A model generated the notes under the pieces. That model made no database searches. It saw nothing but the letters and a program-made list of their open reading frames with translations, and was not told the origin of the DNA. From Nostoc sp. T09 (GTDB lineage: Bacteria > Cyanobacteriota > Cyanobacteriia > Cyanobacteriales > Nostocaceae): a stretch of 64,000 nucleotides of DNA. Of the stretch, positions 8,529 to 63,975 are shown one piece after another. Every line of letters begins with the position of its first letter. Position 1 is the stretch's first letter. Made by a program: the position numbers and the translations under genes. Location of the stretch: positions 7,528-71,527 of the forward strand of contig NZ_MTAV01000210.1 of the NCBI RefSeq assembly GCF_002154695.1, read 5' to 3'.

Positions 8529-9791
8529 ATGATGAATTTCAGAGATGATTCTGAATTATTAATTTCAGTAGACAAAGTTTCTAAGAAGTTTTGTCGAAAC
8601 TTAAAACAGTCTTTATTTTATGGGGTTCAAGACATTTGTAAAGAGCTAATAGGCGGAAATAGAAATAGCGAAACTCTACGTCAACAAGAATTTTGGGCAC
8701 TAAAAGATGTGAGCTTTCAACTACGACGGGGAGAAGCCTTAGGATTAGTGGGAGCAAATGGAGCCGGAAAAAGTACACTGCTACGCATTATTAGTGGACT
8801 GATTAATCCTGATACTGGCTGTGTGAAAGTTAGGGGAAAATTAGCTCCATTAATTGCTTTGGGAGCAGGGTTTAATCCGATTCTTACAGGGCGAGAAAAT
8901 ATCTATGCTAATATGTCAATTCTGGGTTTATCTACTAAAGAAATAGCAGAGAGATTTCAAGATGTCATAGATTTTGCTGGTATTGCAGATGCAATTGATG
9001 CACCTGTACAGACTTATAGTTCTGGTATGGCGGCTAGATTGGGTTTTGCTTGTGCAGTTCACATAGAACCAGATGTTTTATTAATTGATGAAGTGTTAGC
9101 TGTAGGCGATATCAATTTTAGAGTCAAATGTTATCAGAAACTAGCAAAACTTAGAGAAGCTGGTACAGCTTTTATTTTAGTTTCTCATAATCCCCATGTG
9201 GTTTTGAATGTATGTGAAAATTCTCTATATCTTGCCAAAGGCGAATTAATTAAATATGGCGAGACAGAAGTCGTAATTCGTCAATACGAAGAAGATTTAA
9301 GTTTAGCTGGTACAGAAACATCTTTAGGAATGATGTTTTTACCAGAAAAACCGCAGAGTGAAAGTTTAGGTGTAGATATTATTTCTCTAAGTTTTAAAGA
9401 TGAGCAAGGCAATATACTTGCGGCTCCTCTTTGTGGGGAATTAGCTTATTTATGCGTAGAATGTAAAGCCTACAAAAAAGTTGATTATGCAAATTTAGGT
9501 GTATCTATTACTGCTTTATCTGGACAAAATGAGCGAATTTTATATATAACCTCTGCCAGTGATAATGAACCTTTAAATATACTTCCCGGAAGAGTTGAAA
9601 TCCAAATGCAGATGCCTTATTTTTGCTTATTACCCGGTTTATACAGTGCCAAAATATATATAAAAGAAGGTGTATGTTCTTTTGATATAGTCGAATCTTT
9701 TCGATTTACTGTGAAAGCTAGCAAGATTACGAGTCGTTCTTTATTTTATCAACCACGGAAATGGCAAGTTATTAGTAAAGGTAAAATTTAA
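8529..9791 (+). CDS. wzt: ABC transporter ATP-binding protein (Wzt-like) with C-terminal carbohydrate-binding extension
   Basis: Walker A (GANGAGKST), signature (YSSGMAARLGFA) and Walker B (LLIDEVLAVGD). An extra ~160-aa C-terminal domain resembles the glycan-binding domains of Wzt transporters. Confidence 0.85.
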   Translation: MMNFRDDSELLISVDKVSKKFCRNLKQSLFYGVQDICKELIGGNRNSETLRQQEFWALKDVSFQLRRGEALGLVGANGAGKSTLLRIISGLINPDTGCVKVRGKLAPLIALGAGFNPILTGRENIYANMSILGLSTKEIAERFQDVIDFAGIADAIDAPVQTYSSGMAARLGFACAVHIEPDVLLIDEVLAVGDINFRVKCYQKLAKLREAGTAFILVSHNPHVVLNVCENSLYLAKGELIKYGETEVVIRQYEEDLSLAGTETSLGMMFLPEKPQSESLGVDIISLSFKDEQGNILAAPLCGELAYLCVECKAYKKVDYANLGVSITALSGQNERILYITSASDNEPLNILPGRVEIQMQMPYFCLLPGLYSAKIYIKEGVCSFDIVESFRFTVKASKITSRSLFYQPRKWQVISKGKI

Positions 9792-12932: not shown

Positions 12933-13164
12933 TTCAATTGTTTAAATTATGACAGCGATAAATAATAACCTAGTTATAATCACTCTTATAGAATAAGTAC
13001 ACCTACGTGCAAAATTTATCTGAGTAATTTCATCTGTAGATAGCTATAGCTTACCTACCTGTCTCAGAAAATTAGGGCATGGTAATTACCCCTGCTAGAA
13101 CGATCAAAGCATGGGCGATCGCGAAATCAAATCTATCCAAAGCCCTAGGCAGCAAAGATACAAG

Positions 13165-13202
13165 CTCGTAGTTGCGCTTTAGCGCTAAAGCGCAACTACG
13201 AG
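13165..13202. promoter_or_regulatory. perfect 38-bp palindrome (ctcgtagttgcgctttagcgctaaagcgcaactacgag)
   Basis: Exact inverted symmetry with 19-bp arms, immediately 3' of the cupin gene stop and 230 bp upstream of the SLH-protein start. No T-run follows, so it is not a classical terminator. Confidence 0.5.
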
Positions 13203-13206
13203 CCAG

Positions 13207-17469: not shown

Positions 17470-17745
17470 ATTTCAATATTTTGGAAATAGATATCTATTC
17501 AGGCTGCTATGAGAAGCATTTAAGAATAAAAAATCGATATTTACAGCCTTTTTCCTTTATTTGAGCTATCTATCTCTTCATGGCGCAATATTTTAACTGC
17601 ATGGTCTGTAAATATAGGTTTTTCCTAACTTATACCAATTAAACTAATGATTGCAACACATTTTTGCTTCAAGACGCGATTCATCGCGTCTCTACAGATG
17701 GTCTATTTGTCACATTCTTTTTTCAAATTGGTATTATTTAAAAAA

Positions 17746-17967
17746 ATCGCGATGTTATTGATAAACGTCGCAATGTTATCGATGAACGCCTCGATGTTAT
17801 CGATGAACGCCTCGATGTTATCGATGAACGTCGCAATGTTATTGATAAACGTCGCGATGTTATTGATAAACGTCGCGATGTTATCGATGAACGCCGCGAT
17901 GTTATTGATGAACGCCGCGATGTTATTGATGAACGCCACGATGTTATTGATAAACATCGCGATGTTA
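17746..17967. repeat. tandem array of ~10.5 x 21-bp repeats (unit cgcgatgttattgataaacgt and variants)
   Basis: Strict 21-nt period. Units differ at 4-5 fixed positions (pos 3, 12, 16, 21). All six frames are open across the array (e.g. NIATFIN heptads on the minus strand, MLSMNAS on the plus strand). Confidence 0.9.
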
Positions 17968-35059: not shown

Positions 35060-36202
35060 ATGAGTCTGTGGCCGCGCCCCCTGAAACGATCGCAACTGAG
35101 TATTGAGCGAATAATCACTCGATTCAGGTTAAATTCGCTTAAAGGCTTTGTATCGTTATTTTTGGCAGGGACATTATTGAGTGTGGCCCTTGCCGCCTGC
35201 TCTGGTGGAAATAGTAGTAATTCTGCCAGTGAAACCCCTGCCGCTAGTCCTGTTGCCGCCAACAAACAAAATGTAGAATTAACTCTTGTTTCCTTTGCTG
35301 TCACCAAAGCAGCGCACGAAGCTGTTATTCCTAAATTTGTAGAAAAATGGAAACAAGAACATAACCAAACTGTTAGCTTCAAGCAAAGCTACGGGGGATC
35401 TGGTTCTCAAACTCGTGCTGTGATCGATGGTTTAGAAGCAGACGTTGTTCATTTAGCGCTGGCAGGAGATACAGAAAAAATTCAAAAGGCGGGATTAATT
35501 GAGGCGGGATGGGAGAAGGAAGCCCCTAATAATGCTATTGTTACGAAAACTGTAGCAGCATTAGTAACTCGCCCAGGCAACCCTAAAGGTATCAAAACTT
35601 GGGCTGATTTAGGCAAAGATGGAGTTAAATGGATTACGGCCGATCCTAAAACATCAGGGATTGCTAGGTGGAATTTTCTGGCGCTATGGAATTCTGTGAT
35701 TAAAACTGGTGGGGATGACGCTAAAGCCACGGAATTTGTCACCAAAGCTTACAAAAACGTACCTGTTTTGACAAAAGATGCGCGTGAAGCTACTGATACC
35801 TTTGCCAAGCAAGGTCAGGGAGACGCCTTAATCAACTATGAAAACGAAATTATCTTGGCACAACAAAAAGGTGAAAAGGTTGAGTATGTTGTTCCTGATG
35901 TAAATATCTCCATTGATAATCCCATCGCCATAGTAGATAAGAACGTTGATAAGCACGGTACTCGTGAAGTCGCTGAAGCATTTGTTAAATATCTTTACAC
36001 TCCCGAAGCTCAACAGGAGTTTGTCAAAGTAGGATTCCGTCCTGTAGATGAGACACTAGCCCAAAGTAAGGAAGTTACAGACAAATATACTAAGGTCAAA
36101 ACGCTGGGTACAGCTCAAGACTTGGGAGGTTGGGATGAAATTGATAAGAAATTCTTCGCTGATGGCGGGGTTTTCGATAAAATTCAAGCCCAGAAGAAAT
36201 AA
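35060..36202 (+). CDS. sbpA: sulfate/thiosulfate ABC transporter substrate-binding lipoprotein
   Basis: AGGAGG SD 9 bp upstream. Lipobox (LAACSGG). Family pattern (FAVTKAAHEAV...SYGGSGSQTRAVIDGLEADVVHLALAGD) and genomic context with cysT/cysW. Confidence 0.85.
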   Translation: MSLWPRPLKRSQLSIERIITRFRLNSLKGFVSLFLAGTLLSVALAACSGGNSSNSASETPAASPVAANKQNVELTLVSFAVTKAAHEAVIPKFVEKWKQEHNQTVSFKQSYGGSGSQTRAVIDGLEADVVHLALAGDTEKIQKAGLIEAGWEKEAPNNAIVTKTVAALVTRPGNPKGIKTWADLGKDGVKWITADPKTSGIARWNFLALWNSVIKTGGDDAKATEFVTKAYKNVPVLTKDAREATDTFAKQGQGDALINYENEIILAQQKGEKVEYVVPDVNISIDNPIAIVDKNVDKHGTREVAEAFVKYLYTPEAQQEFVKVGFRPVDETLAQSKEVTDKYTKVKTLGTAQDLGGWDEIDKKFFADGGVFDKIQAQKK

Positions 36203-36213
36203 AAATTAGTTAT

Positions 36214-36296
36214 TTGTCATTGGTCATTGGTCATTGGTCAAATGACAACTGACAACTGACAACTGACAACTGACAACTGACCACTGACTATTGACA
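36214..36296. repeat. STRR-type heptanucleotide tandem repeats arranged as an inverted pair ((cattggt)3-4 then (caactga)5)
   Basis: ttgtcattggtcattggtcattggtcaaatgacaactgacaactgacaactgacaactgaccactgacta. The two heptamer families are reverse complements of one another. Lies between sbpA and cysT. Confidence 0.85.
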
Positions 36297-37166
36297 ATGA
36301 CTCTATCTCCTTCTTTTGAAGCTGACGGTAAAACTCCCGCCTGGAAAGGATTACTGCAAAAGTTGCGTCAAATTCCCTGGACTTGGCGCATTACTTTGGG
36401 ATACCTCACAGTTATGTTGTTCATCCCCATAACAGCGATGTTTCTCAAAGCCAGTACAGAAACGCCAGCCAGATTTTGGGCGATCGCTACTAGTGATGTC
36501 GCCCTTGCGACATACAATGTAACTTTTCTTACTTCATTATCTGCTGCTTTGCTCAATGGGGTATTTGGGACTCTGATTGCTTGGGTATTGGTGCGTTATG
36601 ACTTCCCGTTAAAACGCATCATTGATGCCACCGTAGATTTACCGTTTGCTTTGCCAACATCGGTAGCAGGTTTAACACTAGCAACAGTGTACAGTAATAA
36701 TGGTTGGATTGGTTCACTATTAGCACCACTGGGGATTAAGGTATCTTTCACTCGTTTGGGCGTATGGGTAGCAATGATCTTCATTTCGCTACCGTTTATA
36801 GTGCGGACAGTGCAACCTGTGCTGCAAGAAATGGAACACGAAATTGAAGAAGCCGCCTGGTCTTTAGGTGCTTCCCAATGGCAGACTTTTTGGAAAGTTA
36901 TCTTACCACCTTTATTTCCCACAATTCTGACTGGTGTAGCCTTGGGTTTCTCGCGTGCAGTTGGGGAGTATGGCTCTACTGTAATTATCTCTTCTAATAC
37001 ACCCTACCAAGATTTAATTGCACCTGTATTGATTTTTCAACGGCTAGAACAGTACGACTATTCTGGTGCAACTGTCATTGGCGTAGTTTTATTGGCAATT
37101 TCCTTAGTACTACTTCTAGCAATTAATTTCTTACAAGCCTGGTCAAGAAGATATGACAGTAAATGA
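36297..37166 (+). CDS. cysT: sulfate ABC transporter permease CysT
   Basis: 6-TM permease with EAA loop ([21 protein letters not shown]). Start taken at ATG 36297 because the track ORF begins at TTG 36291. The last 14 nt overlap cysW. Confidence 0.85.
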
Positions 37167-38031
37167 GCCAAGGTTTCACTCATCTACGGCTGCTGATAAA
37201 CCTACAGTCAACCCCAAACAAACTAAAAGTTGGGTACCAACACTTTTAATTGGGATTGCGATCGCCTATTTAGCTTTAGTTCAATATATCCCAGCAATCA
37301 ACGTTTTTATCCAAGCCTTCGGTAAAGGGGTTGGCCCCTTCTTTGCTAACTTATCCAAACCCGCCTTTCTCCATGCAGCTTGGCTGACGCTAATACTAGC
37401 GGTGATAGCTGTGCCGATCAATGCAGTTTTTGGACTTTGTGCAGCTTGGGCGATCGCTCGTCATAATTTTCCTGGTAAGGCTGTAGTCTTAAGTATTATT
37501 GACCTACCCTTTTCGATCTCGCCCGTAGTTGCTGGATTAATGATTGTGTTGCTATATGGGCGAAATGGCTGGTTTGGCCCTTGGCTGCAAGGGCATGATA
37601 TCCAAATTATCTTTGCCTTTCCTGGTATGGTATTGGCTACCGCGTTCGTGAGTATGCCCTTTGTCGCTAGAGAAGTAATTCCTGTTTTAGAAGAGTTTGG
37701 CAAGGATCAAGAAGAAGCAGCAAGAACACTCGGCGCAAACGATTGGCAAACATTTTGGCGCGTCACCCTACCCAGTATTCGCTGGGGTTTACTCTACGGC
37801 TTAATTTTAACCAATGCTAGAGCAATGGGCGAATTTGGCGCGGTTTCAGTAGTATCTGGCAATATTGCTGATAAAACCCAGAGCTTACCACTATTTGTTG
37901 AAGATGCTTACAAACAGTATGAAACTGAAGCTGCATTTTCCGCCGCTGTACTGTTAGCGCTACTAGCAGTAGTCACTTTGGTGTTGAAAGAGATTTTAGA
38001 ACGCAAAACCCGCATTAAGGATGTGGATTGA
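37153..38031 (+). CDS. cysW: sulfate ABC transporter permease CysW
   Basis: Paralogue of CysT with EAA loop ([21 protein letters not shown]); overlaps cysT. Confidence 0.85.
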
Positions 38032-38145
38032 GTTGGGATTGGGAATGAGGAAGTAGGGGGAGTGTGGGGGGACAAGGAAGCAGAGGAAGCAGAGGAAGAA
38101 GAAATGACTGTTGACTATTGACTTTTGACTCTGGATAAATGGCAA

Positions 38146-38400
38146 ATGACAAATCAAATTAAACGAATTAGGGTAAGAATCCCAAAGGACTATCACCAAG
38201 AACCTGTAATTTCTCGCTTAGTTTCTGACTATGGTCTGATTGTTAATATTACTGCGGCTATTTTGGGAGCTAATGCTGTTGGTGATGGTTGGTTTGACCT
38301 GGAATTACAAGGAACAGATGCACAAATTGAAAGCGCATTAAATTATCTCCAGGAGTTATCTTTGCAAATCTGGGATGAGACAAACACAGCTAATTGGTAA
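38146..38400 (+). CDS. NIL-domain protein (small ferredoxin-like domain found with sulfate/methionine ABC transporters)
   Basis: 84 aa (MTNQIKRIRVRIPKDYHQEPVISRLVSDYGLIVNITAAILGANAVGDGWFDLELQGTDAQIESALNYLQEL) has the NIL motif and is the last gene of the sbpA-cysTW operon. The track ORF starts at an upstream TTG. Confidence 0.6.
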   Translation: MTNQIKRIRVRIPKDYHQEPVISRLVSDYGLIVNITAAILGANAVGDGWFDLELQGTDAQIESALNYLQELSLQIWDETNTANW

Positions 38401-38475
38401 GGTTATTTAAGTCTCTTGTGATAGTGATTGTATAGTCTAGCAATCCTCTATAATTTGTGAAAATTCACTCGTTAC

Positions 38476-38508
38476 AGATCCCCGATTTCTTTAAGAAATC
38501 GGGGATCT
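38476..38508. repeat. 33-bp perfect palindrome agatccccgatttctt-t-aagaaatcggggatct (copy 1), followed by aaTTTTTc
   Basis: 16-bp arms. Acts as the likely terminator of the cys operon. A near-identical copy at 42523-42555 differs by one compensatory base pair. Confidence 0.8.
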
Positions 38509-38721
38509 AATTTTTCATGCATGACACCAATTTGATTTCCCGCAATGGTTTCAGTGTCAGGTTTTGGGTTTGGTAAAAATGGATAAACTCGAGCTTAGAA
38601 TTCAGTATGAATTATGTATGATTGGTGTATTAAATAAACTTGGAATATACACATCATTAATGTTGAGGTAAAAGTAGTTTCGTAGTCAGGACTAAAGTGC
38701 TGGCTACGAACTCATCAAAAG

Positions 38722-41346
38722 TTAAGGTGATTGCGTAGGATTAATTGGGCTAATTAAGCCTTGGGCTGTACTAAATAGATTGATCGGACTGCGTCCATCA
38801 GTAATTAAAACACTCTGCAACCCCAAAGCTTGCAATAATCTTGCCTGCATTTCTGGCCCAGCTTGTGCCATTGCAATCAAGGTTTCTGCCCCGATAGCTT
38901 CTACTTTTTGACGGAATTCGGAACTAGTAATTTCCGCCATCCGCTGTGCTTTTTCTATCTCTAAACCAACAAGTGCTTGTTGGTGGGCGAGTTCCGCCAT
39001 CTGCCGGGCGCGTAATTGCTCTAATTCAGCTTCGGCTCGAACCCTGGCGGCTTCTGCTTCTTGTTGTGCCAAATTTACTGCTAATTCGCCTTGAATTCTC
39101 GCGGCTTCTGCTTTAGCTCTGGCTTCAGCGGTAGCATGACCTGTGGCTTCAATTGCGGCATTTTCTGCTTCTAATTCCAATAGGTTTTTCCGCTCACTTG
39201 CAGCTGCACTTTTATCGACAATTGCTTGTCTTTCTAACCTAGCTTTTGCTTCTTGTTCGATACGTTCAGCATCATGACGGGCTGCGGCTTCTTGAGCATC
39301 GGTGGTAATTTGAATCGCAATTTGCACCGATTTTTGCAGACTGTCTAAGGTACGTTCGTCAACAGGTTCGACTGATTGAATATCAACATTAAATATCACC
39401 AAGTTATTGGTTCTAAAACGGAATTCTTCGCGGATATGTCCGGCTTCATCTGTACCAAATACGGCAACGCGAATAATACGGGCAGAATTGCGATGAAATT
39501 CATCAAATTTGACGCCTGCTACTGCACCACGCACCCGCGATGCGATCGCTTTACATGCAGTATCGACAAAATCCGGTACTTGAAACAGTTTGGCGGCTGC
39601 TTGTTCGTCGTGGCGGTCTACGTCAAAATACCAGTTATAAGATAACCGCAGCTGTAGGCGTGCATGGTCGGAAGTTTCGACGGTAAATAAATCCGTCATA
39701 AAATCTGGCCCCAGTAATAACGCCAGTGACTTAATCCGATGCATTTGTTTGGGTACGCCACCAGACAAACTCAACACGCTAAAGGCTTCATCTGGGCCTA
39801 ACATCACCAAGTCGGGGCCAAAGACAGTGCGGGCTGTTCTTTCTTTATAATCATGGATTTGGACGGCGGCGTTTTGAGGAACGTGAAAGACAACCGCCTT
39901 AGTGCGATCGCGTTTTTGTGGTTGAGGTAAATTTGTTTGATCTCGGTGATGCTGTCCCCTGTCAGCAATAGGATCAAATTTATTTGCTAGTAGTTCTTCA
40001 ACGACGGTTGGTAGTTCTTTTTGCCAAAGTTCTTCATAGGGTGTGAGCATATATGCTTGAGGGCCACCCACTAGCTTGAGTTCGCCTGTTTGAATATCGC
40101 GGACGTAGATTCCTTCATTCTTATCTAGGGGGATAGCTTGGCGTTTTTCTACTACTTCCACTTCCACCCGGGGAATATAATCTCTCGGCCCAGCAATCAT
40201 CCACATATCCCCAGGTTGGCGTTGAATCAAAGTTGCGCCTTCACCTTCGCTAAAAGCTTCTCTCGCCCGCAGTAACAATGCTTCTTGCTCACCTAAAACA
40301 TAAACTTTTTCGATACCCTTTTCTAAAGATTCACCAGGATGCAAGAAAAATGAAGTTCTACCTTGACGTACTTCGCGCATTCCTAATTGCGGTTTACCTG
40401 CATCATCAATGGGGTTAACAACAATACACCATTCTCTGTCACCCAAAACGGTAATTTTAACTTCCCCTACCACTACTTCATAAACATCAGGAATGTGGAT
40501 TTCTGCATCTTCAAAAGTTACTAACCATTCATCTCCAGCTTTGCGCTGACGACCAAAAACATCATTAAATGTGCGTTGCGCCCGCAGATGTAAAGCTTTC
40601 TTTTCTGTTAACACATAGGCATTAATCATGCCTACAACTTCTTCATCAACCCCTGGTAAATAGGCTCCTTCTTCTCTAACTAACCATTCTTCACCAGATC
40701 GACGCTGATTACCTAAGCGATCGCTACAATTTTGTCGCGCCAGTAAGCGCAATGCTTGGTTGGGCTTAATTATCTGCGCTGTCACCGTTTCCATGACTTC
40801 TACTTCTACACGAGGAACATAGGTTCCCGGCCCTTCAAACAGCCACTCATCCCCCGCTAACCGATTGATATTCCTAGTTTGAATTTGCCCGTCAACGGTA
40901 ACGGTAATCGTATCAGTGAAATCTCTCAGCGATCGCAGACGCAGTGCTTGATTAGTCTCAACCACTTGCAAGCGCTTGATTTCTCCCTCTAACTCTTCGC
41001 CGGGATAAAGTGGAAATGGTTCTTGCGCAAAGCGGATTTCTTCGTCACCATACCGCAGTTTCACCTGACCAAAGTCATCAGCGATCGGTTGATTTTCCTC
41101 ATTCCGTTGCACTGGATTAGCAACAATACAATAGTGGCGAGGTGGAACCACAATCATTGGCTCAGGTTTTAATATCAACCGTTCGTGGTCGCGCAGCGTA
41201 ATGGTTTGCGGCCCAACTTCCAAGCGGGTAACACCAGTATTGTTGTCTAAAACATGAATAAATTGCTGGGGTTTGAGGCGAATGACACCGCTAGAAGTTC
41301 CCGGAGCATCGCTTTTAGTTTCAATTTTACGTTCGCTTGCATTCAT
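38722..41346 (-). CDS. mvp: major vault protein (MVP) homologue, full length
   Basis: 874 aa. Repeated ~55-aa MVP repeats (…[11 protein letters not shown]…, …[24 protein letters not shown]…, …ALRLLARQN…, …[12 protein letters not shown]…[24 protein letters not shown]…). Followed by the shoulder domain, a long Ala/Glu/Arg-rich cap helix, and a cap-ring tail ([29 protein letters not shown]), collinear with vertebrate MVP over the whole length. Confidence 0.85.
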
Positions 41347-41551
41347 AATTTTATAGATGTTTTTTACTTGTAAAATATTTTTTCAAAAGGAAATATAACT
41401 TCTACTATTTTCTGTTATTCCTGTCAGAATAAATTCCGCTTCATCCTAACCGATTTGTTAACTAATGTCTTAATCACAGAGTAAAAATGCGTATTTCCTC
41501 TGACAAGCAGCCATAGTTCGGAAATGCGATGCCTAGGTTGGGCTGCGCCTA

Positions 41552-41783
41552 CGCAATTGCCATTTTTGATACTACAATTGCCATTTCGGAGACTACAATT
41601 GCCATTTTCGATACTACAATTGCCATTTCTGAGACTACAATTGCCATTTCTGAGACTACAATTGCCGTTTCGGAGACTACAATTGCCATTTTCGATACTA
41701 CAATTGCCATTTTTGAGACTACAATTGCCATTTTTGAGACTACAATTGCTATTTCGGAGACTACAATTGCCGTTTCGGAGACT
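41552..41783. repeat. tandem array of ~11 x 21-bp repeats (unit actacaattgccatttcggag and variants), 200 bp upstream of the MVP start codon
   Basis: Strict 21-nt period. 16 conserved nt (actacaattgccattt, containing palindromic caattg) plus a 5-nt variable tail (cggag / tcgat / ctgag / ttgag). All frames are open (TTIAISE heptads on plus, MAIVVSK on minus). Confidence 0.9.
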
Positions 41784-41899
41784 TTAATTCATAAAAATTC
41801 TTACCTTCCTTCTGCCTGTCGGGAACAGGGAACAGAAAAATTCCACTTTCATGCTTGACTATGAAACTTGTTTCATCGGGACTGCCTTCTGCCTTATTT

Positions 41900-42391
41900 T
41901 CAAACTAAATCTAATTTTTTACTCATTTTTGTAACTGGAACAATTATCCCTTTCTTTAACTGATGCGGTGCCCTGGCGATAAAAGTAAAACCCAGCCGTG
42001 AATAAAATCCTTCAGCATACAGGCTAGCATTTGTAAGTACTTTATCTATACCTTGCTCGCTGGCTTGATAGCAAAAATGATTAACTAAAACTCGCCCTAT
42101 GCCTTTTCTTTGGTATTTGGGATGCACATATAAAGCTATGAGTTCATCCACAATATAACTAGCAAACCCCACAAGCACATCATCTTCGACAGCTACCCAG
42201 AAATGTTCTGCTTTCAGACTCTTCATGATATTTGAACCATCAGGCTGATCACGATAATTTCGCCAAGCTAACAGTTCTTTCTGAGAATAGAAGGTTGCTG
42301 GTAGTGCTTTTATGGCAGCAATATGAATTGCACTAATATCCCATGCATCTGTTTCTTGTGCAGGTCGAAGAACTATTTCGTTAGCGCTCAT
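41900..42391 (-). CDS. GNAT family N-acetyltransferase
   Basis: 163 aa with motif A (VHPKYQRKGIGRVLVNHFCYQASEQG). Confidence 0.75.
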   Translation of the reverse strand: MSANEIVLRPAQETDAWDISAIHIAAIKALPATFYSQKELLAWRNYRDQPDGSNIMKSLKAEHFWVAVEDDVLVGFASYIVDELIALYVHPKYQRKGIGRVLVNHFCYQASEQGIDKVLTNASLYAEGFYSRLGFTFIARAPHQLKKGIIVPVTKMSKKLDLV

Positions 42392-42522
42392 ATTTTTAGG
42401 GCTGGCATCAAAATTATATGCCTTGTGGACTTTATTTTTACAAAGATATCAAGTTTTTTATCAGGAACATAAGTTGCGATCGCAATATGTAAAAAAGCTC
42501 AATTCTTAACTGTCTACAGCCC

Positions 42523-42555
42523 AGATCCCCGACTTCTTAAAGAAGTCGGGGATCT
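42523..42555. repeat. 33-bp perfect palindrome agatccccgacttctt-a-aagaagtcggggatct (copy 2)
   Basis: Same element as 38476-38508 with a T>C / A>G compensatory pair in the stem. Here it lies in a divergent promoter region between the GNAT and the antiporter gene, with no T-run. Confidence 0.8.
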
Positions 42556-42627
42556 AACAAGTTATTGGTTGACTCTTGCCTTAAGATTGCTATACTACCT
42601 CTCCCCATTTCATCTAAGGGAAATAAA

Positions 42628-43917
42628 ATGTCAAATTTTGAGCTAGTACTCAAGCTGTTGCTGCAAATAACGGTAATTTTGATAACTTGTCGGGTTGTGA
42701 CTATTGTTGGGAAACGATATCTGGGACAAACCGATGTTGTTTGTGAAATGATTGCTGGTGTGATGTTAGGCCCATCTTTGCTGGGTTTAATCAATCCAGA
42801 CATACAGCAATGGCTATTTCCAAAAGCACCAATCTTGTTAGCGACGGGAGCAAAAATCCCCAATCCTTCAATGTCAATTCTCTTCGCTGTTAGTCAGATT
42901 GGACTAGTAATTTATATGTTTTTGATCGGTTTAGAGTTTAATACCGATCTGATTAAGCAGCGCCTCAAAAGTGCAGGTTTGGTGTCTGGTGCTGGGATAA
43001 TTGCGCCTTTTTGTTTGGGTGCAGTTGCAGCTTTTTTCTTGTATGGTAAAGGCGATCTATTCAAACCAGGGGTTACTCCTTGGGCTGCGGCTTTATATCT
43101 GGGTGCTTCTATGTCGATTACGGCATTTCCCATGTTAGCCCGGATGCTCTACGAACGCGGCATTGCCAAAACTACCTTTGGGACTTTAGCACTAGCAGCT
43201 GGTTCCATAGATGATGCGACTGCATGGTGTTTACTAGCTATTGTCCTAGCGAGTCTGAATGCCAATACAAGTATTGCCGCCTTTGCGATTGGTGGTGGGA
43301 TTGGCTACGTACTATTAACAATTTTTATTGGCAAACCAGCATTGAAAATCTTTGCTCGAATTGCAGACAAAGATGGTGGTGTGACAATTCAGACTTTAAC
43401 TTTAGTGCTGATGGTTTTGATGTTCTGTGCATGGTTTACTGATGCCATAGGCATCTATGCAGTATTTGGCGCTTTTATTTTAGGTACAGCAATGCCACGC
43501 GGTGAATTTGCCGAACAAGTACGCGATCGCACAGAATATTTGACTACAGGGTTTTTACTCCCAATATTTTTTGTCTTCTCTGGACTCAACACTCAAATAG
43601 GGCTAGTAAATACACCTACGTTGTGGGGAATTACGCTGTTAATTGTGGCGATCGCTATTTTGGGTAAAGGTATTGCTTGTATGCTAGCAGCAAAATTCGC
43701 TGGAGAAACTTGGCGTGAATCGGCAACTATTGGTGCTCTGATGAATGCTCGTGGTTTGATGGAGTTAATTATCCTCAATATTGGGCTAGAGCAAGGAGTA
43801 ATTACCCCAACTTTATTTACTATCATGGTTATTATGGCAATTGTGACAACATTGATGGCATCGCCACTAGTTGCCTTTTTATTACAAGGTACAATTTACG
43901 AAAAATTTCCAGCTTAA
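42628..43917 (+). CDS. cation:proton antiporter (CPA2 family, NapA/KefB-like)
   Basis: 12-TM Na_H_Exchanger architecture (MLGPSLLGLI..., ...LGLEFN...). Start moved to ATG 42628 (MSNFELV) because the 21-aa upstream extension is non-homologous. Confidence 0.85.
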   Translation: MSNFELVLKLLLQITVILITCRVVTIVGKRYLGQTDVVCEMIAGVMLGPSLLGLINPDIQQWLFPKAPILLATGAKIPNPSMSILFAVSQIGLVIYMFLIGLEFNTDLIKQRLKSAGLVSGAGIIAPFCLGAVAAFFLYGKGDLFKPGVTPWAAALYLGASMSITAFPMLARMLYERGIAKTTFGTLALAAGSIDDATAWCLLAIVLASLNANTSIAAFAIGGGIGYVLLTIFIGKPALKIFARIADKDGGVTIQTLTLVLMVLMFCAWFTDAIGIYAVFGAFILGTAMPRGEFAEQVRDRTEYLTTGFLLPIFFVFSGLNTQIGLVNTPTLWGITLLIVAIAILGKGIACMLAAKFAGETWRESATIGALMNARGLMELIILNIGLEQGVITPTLFTIMVIMAIVTTLMASPLVAFLLQGTIYEKFPA

Positions 43918-50439: not shown

Positions 50440-50570
50440 GTATTTGTCATTTGTCATTGGTCATTTGTCATTGGTCATTGGTCATTTGTCATTTGTCATT
50501 GGTCATTGGTCAAAGGCCAAGCATTTCTTCCCCCTTGTCTCCCTTGTCCCCCTTGTCTCCCTTGTCCCCG
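50440..50570. repeat. STRR-type heptanucleotide tandem repeats ((tttgtca/ttggtca)n followed by (cccttgt)n)
   Basis: atttgtcatttgtcattggtcatttgtcattggtcattggtcatttgtcatttgtcattggtcattggtca then ccccttgtctcccttgtcccccttgtctcccttgtcc. Lies between convergent gene ends. Confidence 0.85.
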
Positions 50571-63734: not shown

Positions 63735-63975
63735 GCATTAAAGTTAAAGACTCGTTGGCGAGTATTAAAGACTCGTTAATGGAGTTATTAACCTCATTCG
63801 CGAGTATTAAAGACTCGTTGACGAGTATTAAAGACTCGCTCACGAGTATTAAAGACTCGTCGCCGAGTATCAAAGACTCATTCACGAGTATCAAAGACTC
63901 GTCGGCGAGTATCAAAGACTCATTCGCGAGTATTAAAGACTCGTTAATGGAGTTATTAGCCTCATTCACGAGGAG
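63735..63975. repeat. tandem array of ~11 x 21-bp repeats (unit gagtat[t/c]aaagactc + 6-nt variable tail), ~200 bp upstream of the ROK gene
   Basis: 15-nt conserved core forming a 4-bp mini-hairpin (gagt...actc), followed by variable hexamers (gttgac / attcac / gctcac / gtcggc / attcgc / gttaat). The array is bounded at both ends by the same diverged unit (ggagttatta[a/g]cctcattc). Confidence 0.9.

Follow-up and report, generated by a model that had tools for sequence, protein, structure and literature searches.

The stretch of Nostoc sp. T09 DNA analyzed here (64,000 nucleotides of contig NZ_MTAV01000210.1, positions 7,528 to 71,527, assembly GCF_002154695.1; hereafter the window) carries two copies of a 33-bp palindrome, which stand at either end of a block of about 4 kb containing the gene for a homologue of the major vault protein (MVP), a 21-bp tandem array and the gene for a GNAT acetyltransferase. 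This block content, given in a preliminary description of the locus made from the letters alone, is confirmed by the gene coordinates. On one side, the block is preceded by a sulfate-type ABC-transporter cluster whose last member is a small NIL-domain gene (Pfam assignment; the same 84-aa gene is present in Calothrix sp. NIES-2098), and on the other side it is followed by a Na+/H+ antiporter gene, which served as the synteny anchor for the comparison with related genomes. The features of the locus are listed below in window coordinates.

35060-36202, + strand: solute-binding protein gene of the sulfate-type ABC transporter
36291-38031, + strand: two permease genes of the sulfate-type ABC transporter
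38146-38400, + strand: NIL-domain gene, 84 aa, last of the sulfate-type ABC-transporter cluster
38476-38508, no strand: palindrome copy 1, AGATCCCCGATTTCTT-T-AAGAAATCGGGGATCT, with the rare T..A variant at arm position 11 and T at the center
38509-38518, + strand: T-rich tail AATTTTTCAT, immediately 3' of copy 1
38722-41346, - strand: MVP homologue, 874 aa, with Vault and MVP_shoulder domains
41554-41783, between MVP and GNAT: tandem array of 11 units of 21 bp, unit CAATTGCCATTTCTGAGACTA
41900-42391, - strand: GNAT acetyltransferase gene
42466-42493, - strand: predicted GNAT promoter, TTTACA-16-TATGTT, 9/12, a consensus match only, with its -35 element 30 nt from copy 2
42523-42555, no strand: palindrome copy 2, AGATCCCCGACTTCTT-A-AAGAAGTCGGGGATCT, with the family consensus C..G at arm position 11 and A at the center
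42569-42596, + strand: predicted antiporter promoter, TTGACT-16-TATACT, 10/12, whose -35 element begins 14 nt past copy 2
42628-43917, + strand: Na+/H+ antiporter gene, 429 aa, with its true start at ATG 42628

Each copy is built of two 16-nt arms, 100% complementary to one another, around a single nucleotide, and the two copies differ only at arm position 11 (T..A versus C..G, each of them complementary) and in the central base. The preliminary description, which had reported two perfect 33-bp palindromes with one compensated pair, was exact both in sequence and in position. Copy 1 lies 75 nt past the stop codon of the NIL-domain gene. Searching the 64-kb window for the half-site at up to 2 mismatches returned just the four arms of copies 1 and 2, compared with a chance expectation of 0.12 matches per 64 kb, and none of 100 shuffled sequences gave four or more matches; no third convincing copy was found in the window at up to 4 mismatches. 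As RNA, copy 1 is predicted to fold with -24.5 kcal/mol on the + strand and -25.3 kcal/mol on the - strand (z -7.5 and -6.2) and copy 2 with -27.0 and -30.7 kcal/mol, the z-scores over both copies ranging from -6.2 to -7.5, and as DNA the copies are predicted to fold with -16 to -17 kcal/mol.

For the distribution of the palindrome outside the window, genomes were scanned with the pattern CCCCGANTTCTTNAAGAANTCGGGG, using one genome per species (185,579 species). The palindrome occurs at at least 120 loci in about 100 genomes and, among the matches listed, all are cyanobacterial. The host genera among these matches are Nostoc, Anabaena/Dolichospermum, Nodularia, Calothrix, Scytonema, Tolypothrix and Fischerella, as well as Microcoleus, Coleofasciculus, Symploca, Chamaesiphon, Stenomitos, Nodosilinea, Floridaenema and others; Kovacikia likewise carries the element, and the family spans several filamentous cyanobacterial orders. 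As these loci represent unrelated contexts, the repeats are not specific to the MVP segment, and of the possibilities raised in the preliminary description it is the dispersed element resembling the repetitive extragenic palindromes (REPs) that agrees with this distribution, the T09 data being those of the 64-kb window. Five plasmid records matched, all of them cyanobacterial and with 1-3 copies per 0.15-1.2 Mb, and zero matches were obtained in phage records and IMG/VR, which makes a phage or plasmid vehicle unlikely.

Over 123 copies, the consensus reads AGAT-CCCCGACTTCTT-N-AAGAAGTCGGGG-ATCT, that is AGATCCCCGACTTCTT-N-AAGAAGTCGGGGATCT, and A, C, G and T are found about equally often at the center. 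At arm position 11, the C..G pair of copy 2 is present in 105 of the 123 copies and the T..A pair of copy 1 is rare. Conservation across the family ends at AGAT/ATCT and the flanks beyond vary, although sub-families of this 33-bp short form with about 40 nt of flank in common are found in Microcoleus and in several Nostocales. Crude calling of open reading frames (ORFs) placed 66 of the same 123 copies between tandem genes, 36 between convergent genes and 8 between divergent genes, with 5 inside an ORF and 8 at a locus edge, such that about 90% are intergenic. Where the flanking genes are in tandem, the distance from the upstream stop codon to the copy is mostly 5-50 nt, a position familiar from REPs and terminators; copy 2, in its divergent spacer, belongs to a minority of 7% of placements. 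The repeats are found on both strands, and neighboring intergenic regions often carry one each. Loci centered on a copy contain about 15 extra copies per Mb, and the copy number appears to be in the tens per genome, not hundreds, in most sampled genomes. Copies are mostly single, apart from direct tandem copies 42-52 nt apart at two loci (L012 and L093; collected loci and contigs are referred to by L numbers), but clusters exist: four copies lie within 1.1 kb on a Fischerella muscicola contig (L039 5982-7076) and four within 4 kb on another contig (L242 3424-7523), where they punctuate successive genes. Moreover, the collected loci include 31 adjacent copy pairs, 0.3-4.5 kb apart, around unrelated housekeeping genes, among them genes for CobW and Obg GTPases, ParA, an ABC exporter pair and a glycosyltransferase.

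The search pattern fixes 11 of the 16 stem pairs, and these are uninformative on covariation because they are imposed by the search; the free pairs are the four outer ones and position 11. In an alignment of 125 copies, all five free pairs covary: 29 cells are changed on both sides, compared to 2.5 +/- 1.6 after shuffling, a value reached in 0 of 500 shuffles, and sliding the partner by one column, as a control, abolishes the signal. The excess of double-changed cells bears out the earlier inference that the compensated change between copies 1 and 2 reflects a constraint on the pairing or symmetry of the arms. Similarly, scanning about 1 Mb of loci at up to 3 mismatches per arm yielded symmetric per-arm mismatch counts ((0,0) in 81 cases, (1,1) in 21 and (2,2) in 5), with compensated variants such as CTTTTT/AAAAAG among them. 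Watson-Crick pairing amounts to 90-98% at positions -4 to -1 and is at chance level from -5 outward, and since pairing falls to chance beyond 16 bp, the element is exactly 33 bp long. Arm covariation of this kind is predicted by hairpin selection (on RNA or DNA) and by fold-back copying alike, and is not predicted by a symmetric protein-binding site.

A longer version of the element was found in metagenomes scanned for a left arm without a following right arm (solo arms), a search in which about half of the matches were chance 16-mers in high-GC coding DNA. This long form, of which about 40 distinct metagenome examples were collected (L133, L194 at 670-734, L247, L145, L181, L132 and about 35 other loci), consists of the same 15-16 bp arms around a loop of 31-47 nt and lies in low-GC, HIP1-containing DNA. 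The loops are semi-conserved and fall into at least two classes, one AT-rich (TTTTAATCTTGTCAATAAATTATCAATTAATGT) and one G+C-richer (GGTTGAAACCTTGAT...GGATTC). Since the loop is asymmetric, the orientation of the long form can be scored, and relative to the flanking genes it was ++ in 9 cases, -- in 12, +- in 6 and -+ in 2. The occurrence in either orientation speaks against a strand-specific small RNA gene, which was rejected on these grounds, and favors a DNA-level unit resembling miniature inverted-repeat transposable elements (MITEs). The 33-bp form would accordingly represent an arms-only version of the 61-78 bp element.

Copies of the element are gained, decaying and lost at orthologous sites. 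At the site of copy 2, the palindrome is perfect with A at its center in T09, and perfect with C at its center, at the same place, on a metagenome contig (L248) that carries an antiporter of 94% identity and on which the right flank of copy 2 has diverged past alignment. The corresponding site of Aulosira sp. ZfuVER01 retains AGATACCTGACTTCT as the left arm, with 3 substitutions, the center and right arm having been lost via an 18-nt deletion flanked by TCT..TCT, which is a deletion of the kind that palindromes provoke. In NIES-2098 the whole stretch of about 55 bp is absent, and Calothrix sp. FACHB-156 has other sequence at this place. The presence of copy 2 in T09, in L248 and, decayed, in Aulosira indicates that it is older than the split of these three, and, as judged from the sequences, two of the lineages have preserved it whole and the third retains a decayed copy. 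A different change is seen in Anabaena, where two copies with flanks of 99.6% identity (L057 2677-2709 and L066 2810-2842) differ by a T<->A flip at the center and one arm substitution; the flip is the product expected from inversion of the palindrome and suggests locally raised mutability.

With regard to transcription, copy 1 is followed on the + strand by AATTTTTC and is the sole strong terminator-like match within 38000-43000, with 15 pairs and then AATTTTTCAT. Stem and tail together have the make-up of a canonical intrinsic terminator, placed 3' of a + strand operon, and copy 1 thus looks like the hairpin of the terminator of the sulfate-type ABC-transporter operon, in line with the role first assigned to it. 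Copy 2 has no T-run beside it on either strand and lies in a divergent spacer, in keeping with the earlier statement that it is unable to terminate transcription there. Because it is situated between the two predicted divergent promoters, copy 2 would fall outside both predicted transcription units; in the antiporter promoter region, the block CTCTTGCCTTAAGATTGCTATACT is kept in five relatives.

In NIES-2098, about 30 nt past the stop codon of the NIL-domain gene, an unrelated and shorter hairpin is found, ATCCTCCTCA-ATTA-TGAGGGGGAT with a 10-bp stem (L124 5753-5786), and it is followed by the same AATTTTT tail as T09 copy 1. This shared tail indicates that copy 1 sits at the stem position of a pre-existing terminator, where it may have come to lie through insertion, through replacement or through conversion. 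Between T09 and NIES-2098, the spacer from NIL to MVP can be aligned only over about the first 30 nt after the stop codon. Besides the AATTTTT tail, the NIES-2098 terminator has the outer ATCC..GGGGAT bases in common with T09 copy 1, and it may itself be what is left of the element, or may have served as its target.

Taken together, these results point to a model in which the two palindromes belong, independently of each other, to a dispersed family of extragenic hairpin repeats found only in cyanobacteria, and in which this family acts as a selfish or semi-domesticated element similar to REPs or MITEs; we assign to this model a probability of roughly 0.8. The family would be propagated or maintained via a folded single-strand or cruciform intermediate, or by selection on the transcribed hairpin. 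With moderate confidence, we propose that it has spread or been homogenized as DNA through a hairpin intermediate, in the fashion of REPs and MITEs, and, with the same confidence, that its copies are tolerated chiefly at gene 3' ends. Some copies would, again with moderate confidence, have been co-opted, as in the case of copy 1, a terminator stem using a T tail that was already there, and copy 2 would be a tolerated insertion, possibly with an action at the DNA level, in the untranscribed spacer of divergent promoters.

Several observations weigh against this model. First, no transposase, RAYT or other gene family was found to be specifically linked to the copies in the gene neighborhoods examined, and mobility is therefore deduced from the distribution of the copies. 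In an all-against-all clustering of the ORFs within 2.5 kb of 123 copies, the recurrent neighbors were large paralogue families (histidine kinases, TPR/Ser-Thr kinases, Uma2 endonucleases, ABC ATPases and haemagglutinin-like proteins). No RAYT (Y1 HUH) was detected within 2.5 kb of 123 short copies, beside solo arms or between paired metagenome copies; unrelated housekeeping genes make up the ORFs next to solo arms as well as those enclosed by paired copies, and no transposase or insertion sequence with matching terminal repeats was present near solo arms or copy pairs. Second, neither target-site duplications nor direct repeats were found around the copies and no clean junction of a filled versus an empty site was obtained; the difference between T09 and the "empty" site of NIES-2098 amounts to about 55 bp instead of 33, and this site may have arisen by deletion. 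Third, the palindrome is 94-97% identical in two orthologous pairs (L094/L117 and L075/L081; identities computed by hand) where the flanks are 82-83% identical, and copy 2 is perfect in two lineages with diverged flanks. Such conservation above that of the flanks is better explained by purifying selection for a host function than by pure selfishness. Finally, a T-rich tail, defined as 5 or more T among 8 positions, accompanies 18% of strand-sides, with no excess on the gene-end strand. With T tails this sparse and without orientation bias, termination cannot be the general role of the family, and a family of canonical terminators is ruled out by these statistics.

Among the recurrent neighbors, genes of the Uma2 family (PD-(D/E)xK, DUF820) are found no farther than 2.5 kb from the element at 10 of the 120 genome loci (L057 1828-2667; L009 3654-4613; L110 5679-6533 and 7101-7955; L202 11785-12594; and others). 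Some of them abut a copy or lie between two, and they are the only recurrent nuclease-like neighbor. The association probably reflects the abundance of this paralogue family, and we take it, on an estimated copy number, to be within chance for a family so large.

Part of the evidence could also be accommodated by an RNA hairpin selected by the host, serving as an either-strand terminator or as a stabilizer of 3' ends against exonucleases, with little or no mobility as DNA and with its sequence kept through recognition by a specific RNA-binding protein or RNase. The strong 3'-end placement (36 convergent versus 8 divergent copies), the high stability of the hairpins (-24 to -31 kcal/mol), the covariation of the arms, the conservation of the palindrome above its flanks at orthologous sites and the location of copy 1 in place of the NIES-2098 terminator stem, with an identical T tail, are all in agreement with such a function. 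We nevertheless regard it as unlikely, since an identical 16-bp arm after hundreds of unrelated genes in several orders is hard to arrive at without copying, the T tail is missing from most copies and shows no orientation bias where present, and the long form is found in both orientations. In addition, copy 2 and 7% of the copies lie in divergent promoter spacers that are maybe not transcribed, copies decay (as in Aulosira and the solo arms), and there is no match to an Rfam family: the window gave no match at gathering level, and a relaxed search with both forms gave generic hairpin matches far below threshold.

A site acting at the level of DNA, either as a cruciform or as a binding site for a conserved cyanobacterial protein such as gyrase, a nucleoid protein or a structure-specific nuclease, with a function in supercoiling or in insulation between transcription units, appears very unlikely to us. 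The BIMEs of E. coli, which are binding sites for gyrase or nucleoid protein, provide the comparison, and the perfect palindrome with a free center, its occurrence in non-transcribed spacers such as that of copy 2 and the punctuation of consecutive intergenic regions by copies would fit such a site, as would the T<->A flips between L057 and L066, expected from an inverted extruded palindrome, and the PD-(D/E)xK genes of the Uma2 family within 2.5 kb of 10 of 120 copies. However, compensated changes in two arms are not what a dimeric protein site would lead one to expect, the Uma2 association is explicable by chance, and the binding protein is hypothetical.

The headline of the preliminary description had been that the two copies mark the ends of an inserted segment made up of MVP, array and GNAT. 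The corresponding loci of relatives, fetched with the antiporter as anchor, are organized as follows.

Calothrix sp. NIES-2098: gene order of T09 (transporter, NIL, MVP, array, GNAT, antiporter); neither palindrome, even with 3 mismatches allowed in each arm
Aulosira sp. ZfuVER01: MVP preceded by two genes for aldo-keto reductases and followed by one for an SNF2 helicase, then GNAT and antiporter; at the site of copy 2, only a decayed left arm
Calothrix sp. FACHB-156: GNAT adjoins the antiporter, with no MVP within 10 kb; no palindrome
Nostoc sp. UHCC 0702: neither GNAT nor MVP; no palindrome

NIES-2098 thus has the whole segment and no palindromes, which contradicts the earlier headline. Nor does the segment between the palindromes behave as an indel, given that MVP has other neighbors in Aulosira, where an SNF2/helicase gene of 1101 aa separates it from GNAT and no palindrome copy is present on the MVP side, and that GNAT of FACHB-156 has no MVP gene in the surrounding 10 kb. 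In the genomes scanned, the element is dispersed, and syntenic genomes keep MVP palindrome-free, a combination which the preliminary description had itself set against an insertion. MVP of T09 is 94.3% identical to that of NIES-2098 and 94.2% to that of Aulosira, the values for the antiporter being 94.4% and 96.3%, respectively. As the identity of MVP is level with that of the flanking antiporter, MVP was already carried by the ancestor that T09, NIES-2098 and Aulosira share, and has been inherited vertically. On this comparison of sequences, the palindrome pair is unrelated to the arrival of MVP; the MVP and GNAT genes are context only, and MVP is no part of the repeat element.

That a mobile or horizontally acquired 4-kb segment of MVP, array and GNAT has the palindromes as its terminal repeats or recombination scars is hence hardly credible, for although the copies do stand at either end of the block, MVP is patchy, with its best homologues outside its own 90% cluster being Oscillatoriales-type at about 84%, and two copies 4 kb apart are not the default expectation for a family as sparse on cyanobacterial plasmids (1-3 per 0.15-1.2 Mb) as this one, these points are outweighed by the identical gene order and 94.3% MVP of the palindrome-free NIES-2098, the different left neighbor, the extra SNF2 helicase gene and the missing MVP-side copy of Aulosira, the adjacency of GNAT and antiporter in FACHB-156 without MVP within 10 kb, the equal divergence of MVP and antiporter, which is that of vertical descent within the clade, the assignment of copy 2 to the GNAT-antiporter spacer, where it is also found in L248 and (decayed) in Aulosira, and the frequent bracketing of unrelated genes by two copies.

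The MVP homologue itself is full-length, with Vault repeats and a shoulder domain, and carries the source annotation "colicin uptake protein". The protein encoded in the window matches that of Nostoc sp. T09 at 100%. It is 94% identical across three Nostocales genomes (T09 window; L124 5951-8578; L122 2228-4852), and its next relatives beyond its own cluster, at about 84% identity, belong to Oscillatoriales-type cyanobacteria. The array between MVP and GNAT is kept at the matching position in Calothrix NIES-2098 (L124 about 8780-9010) and is thus an old feature of the locus. It is one of three 21-bp arrays in the window, each with about 10-11 copies and with differing unit sequences (41554-41783, 17734-17967 and 63744-63972). 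HIP1 octamers and STRR heptamer arrays are also present in the window, as expected for a heterocystous cyanobacterium; the STRR-type arrays (ATTGGTC, CAACTGA) are located at 36212-36301 and 50442-50512, and one of them lies in the short spacer from the solute-binding protein gene to the first permease gene of the ABC-transporter operon. A further palindrome, at 13164-13203, is perfect over 40 bp without a spacer (GCTCGTAGTTGCGCTTTAGC/GCTAAAGCGCAACTACGAGC) and has GTAG near either end. It has no sequence kinship to the 33-bp element and may be a member of the GTAG-tagged cyanobacterial REP families (PMC3733652).

Returning to the dispersed hairpin-repeat family, one could tentatively go further and suppose that it represents a new minimal hairpin mobile element, whose arms are kept identical across orders via fold-back single-strand copying or repair by a host enzyme that is neither a RAYT nor a classical transposase; we consider this rather unlikely, and the PD-(D/E)xK nucleases of the Uma2 family would be a candidate for the enzyme. 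If true, the family would constitute a very small non-autonomous element of a new kind, which in addition punctuates transcription units.

For the locus, the present analysis removes a tempting wrong inference, namely that a vault-protein gene arrived as a palindrome-marked cassette; MVP has instead been inherited vertically within a small Nostocales clade. In more general terms, it defines a compact and searchable repeat family, with a short form of 33 bp, a long form of 61-78 bp and invariant arms of 15-16 bp. Elements of this type are landmarks for annotation, in that they mark operon ends and false "island boundaries", and they are sources of terminators and of genome instability, as is visible in the palindrome-stimulated deletion of Aulosira. 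The family also offers a tractable case for the spread and uniformity of REP-like repeats in a phylum in which only GTAG-tagged REPs have been described.

The REP, BIME and REPIN sequences of proteobacteria are repetitive extragenic palindromes mobilized by RAYT tyrosine transposases (PMC3116915, PMC3733652). Similar to REPs and BIMEs, the repeats described here are short (20-40 bp), extragenic and dispersed, are located for the most part 3' of genes or between convergent ones, are sometimes in tandem or clustered, can serve as terminator or stabilizer hairpins, and are gained and lost between related genomes. In contrast to REPs, the 33-bp element has no unpaired GTAG or CGTC tag, being symmetric and paired to its last base (AGAT/ATCT) with unconserved flanks; it is usually single and not an inverted doublet, and no flanking RAYT was found in the neighborhoods examined. 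Furthermore, REPs are usually specific to a species or genus, whereas the arm sequence of the 33-bp element is common to several cyanobacterial orders, and the cyanobacterial REPs so far described are the GTAG-tagged families GTAG-12, -15 and -16 (PMC3733652).

With MITEs (Nezha in cyanobacteria, Correia/NEMIS, RUP and ERIC), the long form shares terminal inverted repeats of 15-16 bp around a short non-coding core, an intergenic location in either orientation, a long hairpin and lineage-specific sub-families. Typical MITEs are however larger (100-400 bp) than the long form (61-78 bp), the short form consists of arms only, and neither a target-site duplication nor a parent insertion sequence was seen for the element in the neighborhoods examined. 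The SDR1-8 repeats of Nostoc punctiforme (21-27 nt) are likewise very small, dispersed and apparently mobile, and occur in heterocystous cyanobacteria; in the 2008 work of Elhai and colleagues, they are reportedly found in hairpin-forming contexts and without a known transposase. SDR5 inserts inside HIP1, between GCG and ATCGC, and no SDR is found outside Nostocaceae (PMC4390886, PMC5861425). Judged by these later descriptions, the element studied here would be distinct from the SDRs, as it is 33 bp long, lies outside HIP1 and occurs in several orders. When the literature was searched with the sequences CCCCGACTTCTT and GTCGGGGATC, all matches were to primers and guides of no relation to the element, and the literature on SDRs, MITEs and stem-loop repeats in Nostoc gave no description of this sequence, the original SDR1-8 consensus not being part of the comparison.

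The element further resembles the DNA uptake sequences found in Neisseria terminators, in that a conserved sequence is arranged as an inverted repeat and can at the same time form the terminator hairpin 3' of a gene. Those sequences are 10-12 nt long, number thousands of copies per genome and have ComP as their receptor, whereas nothing ties the 33-bp element to transformation. Overall, the repeats are of an ordinary kind, that of extragenic palindromes; the family itself is tidy and unusually widely conserved.

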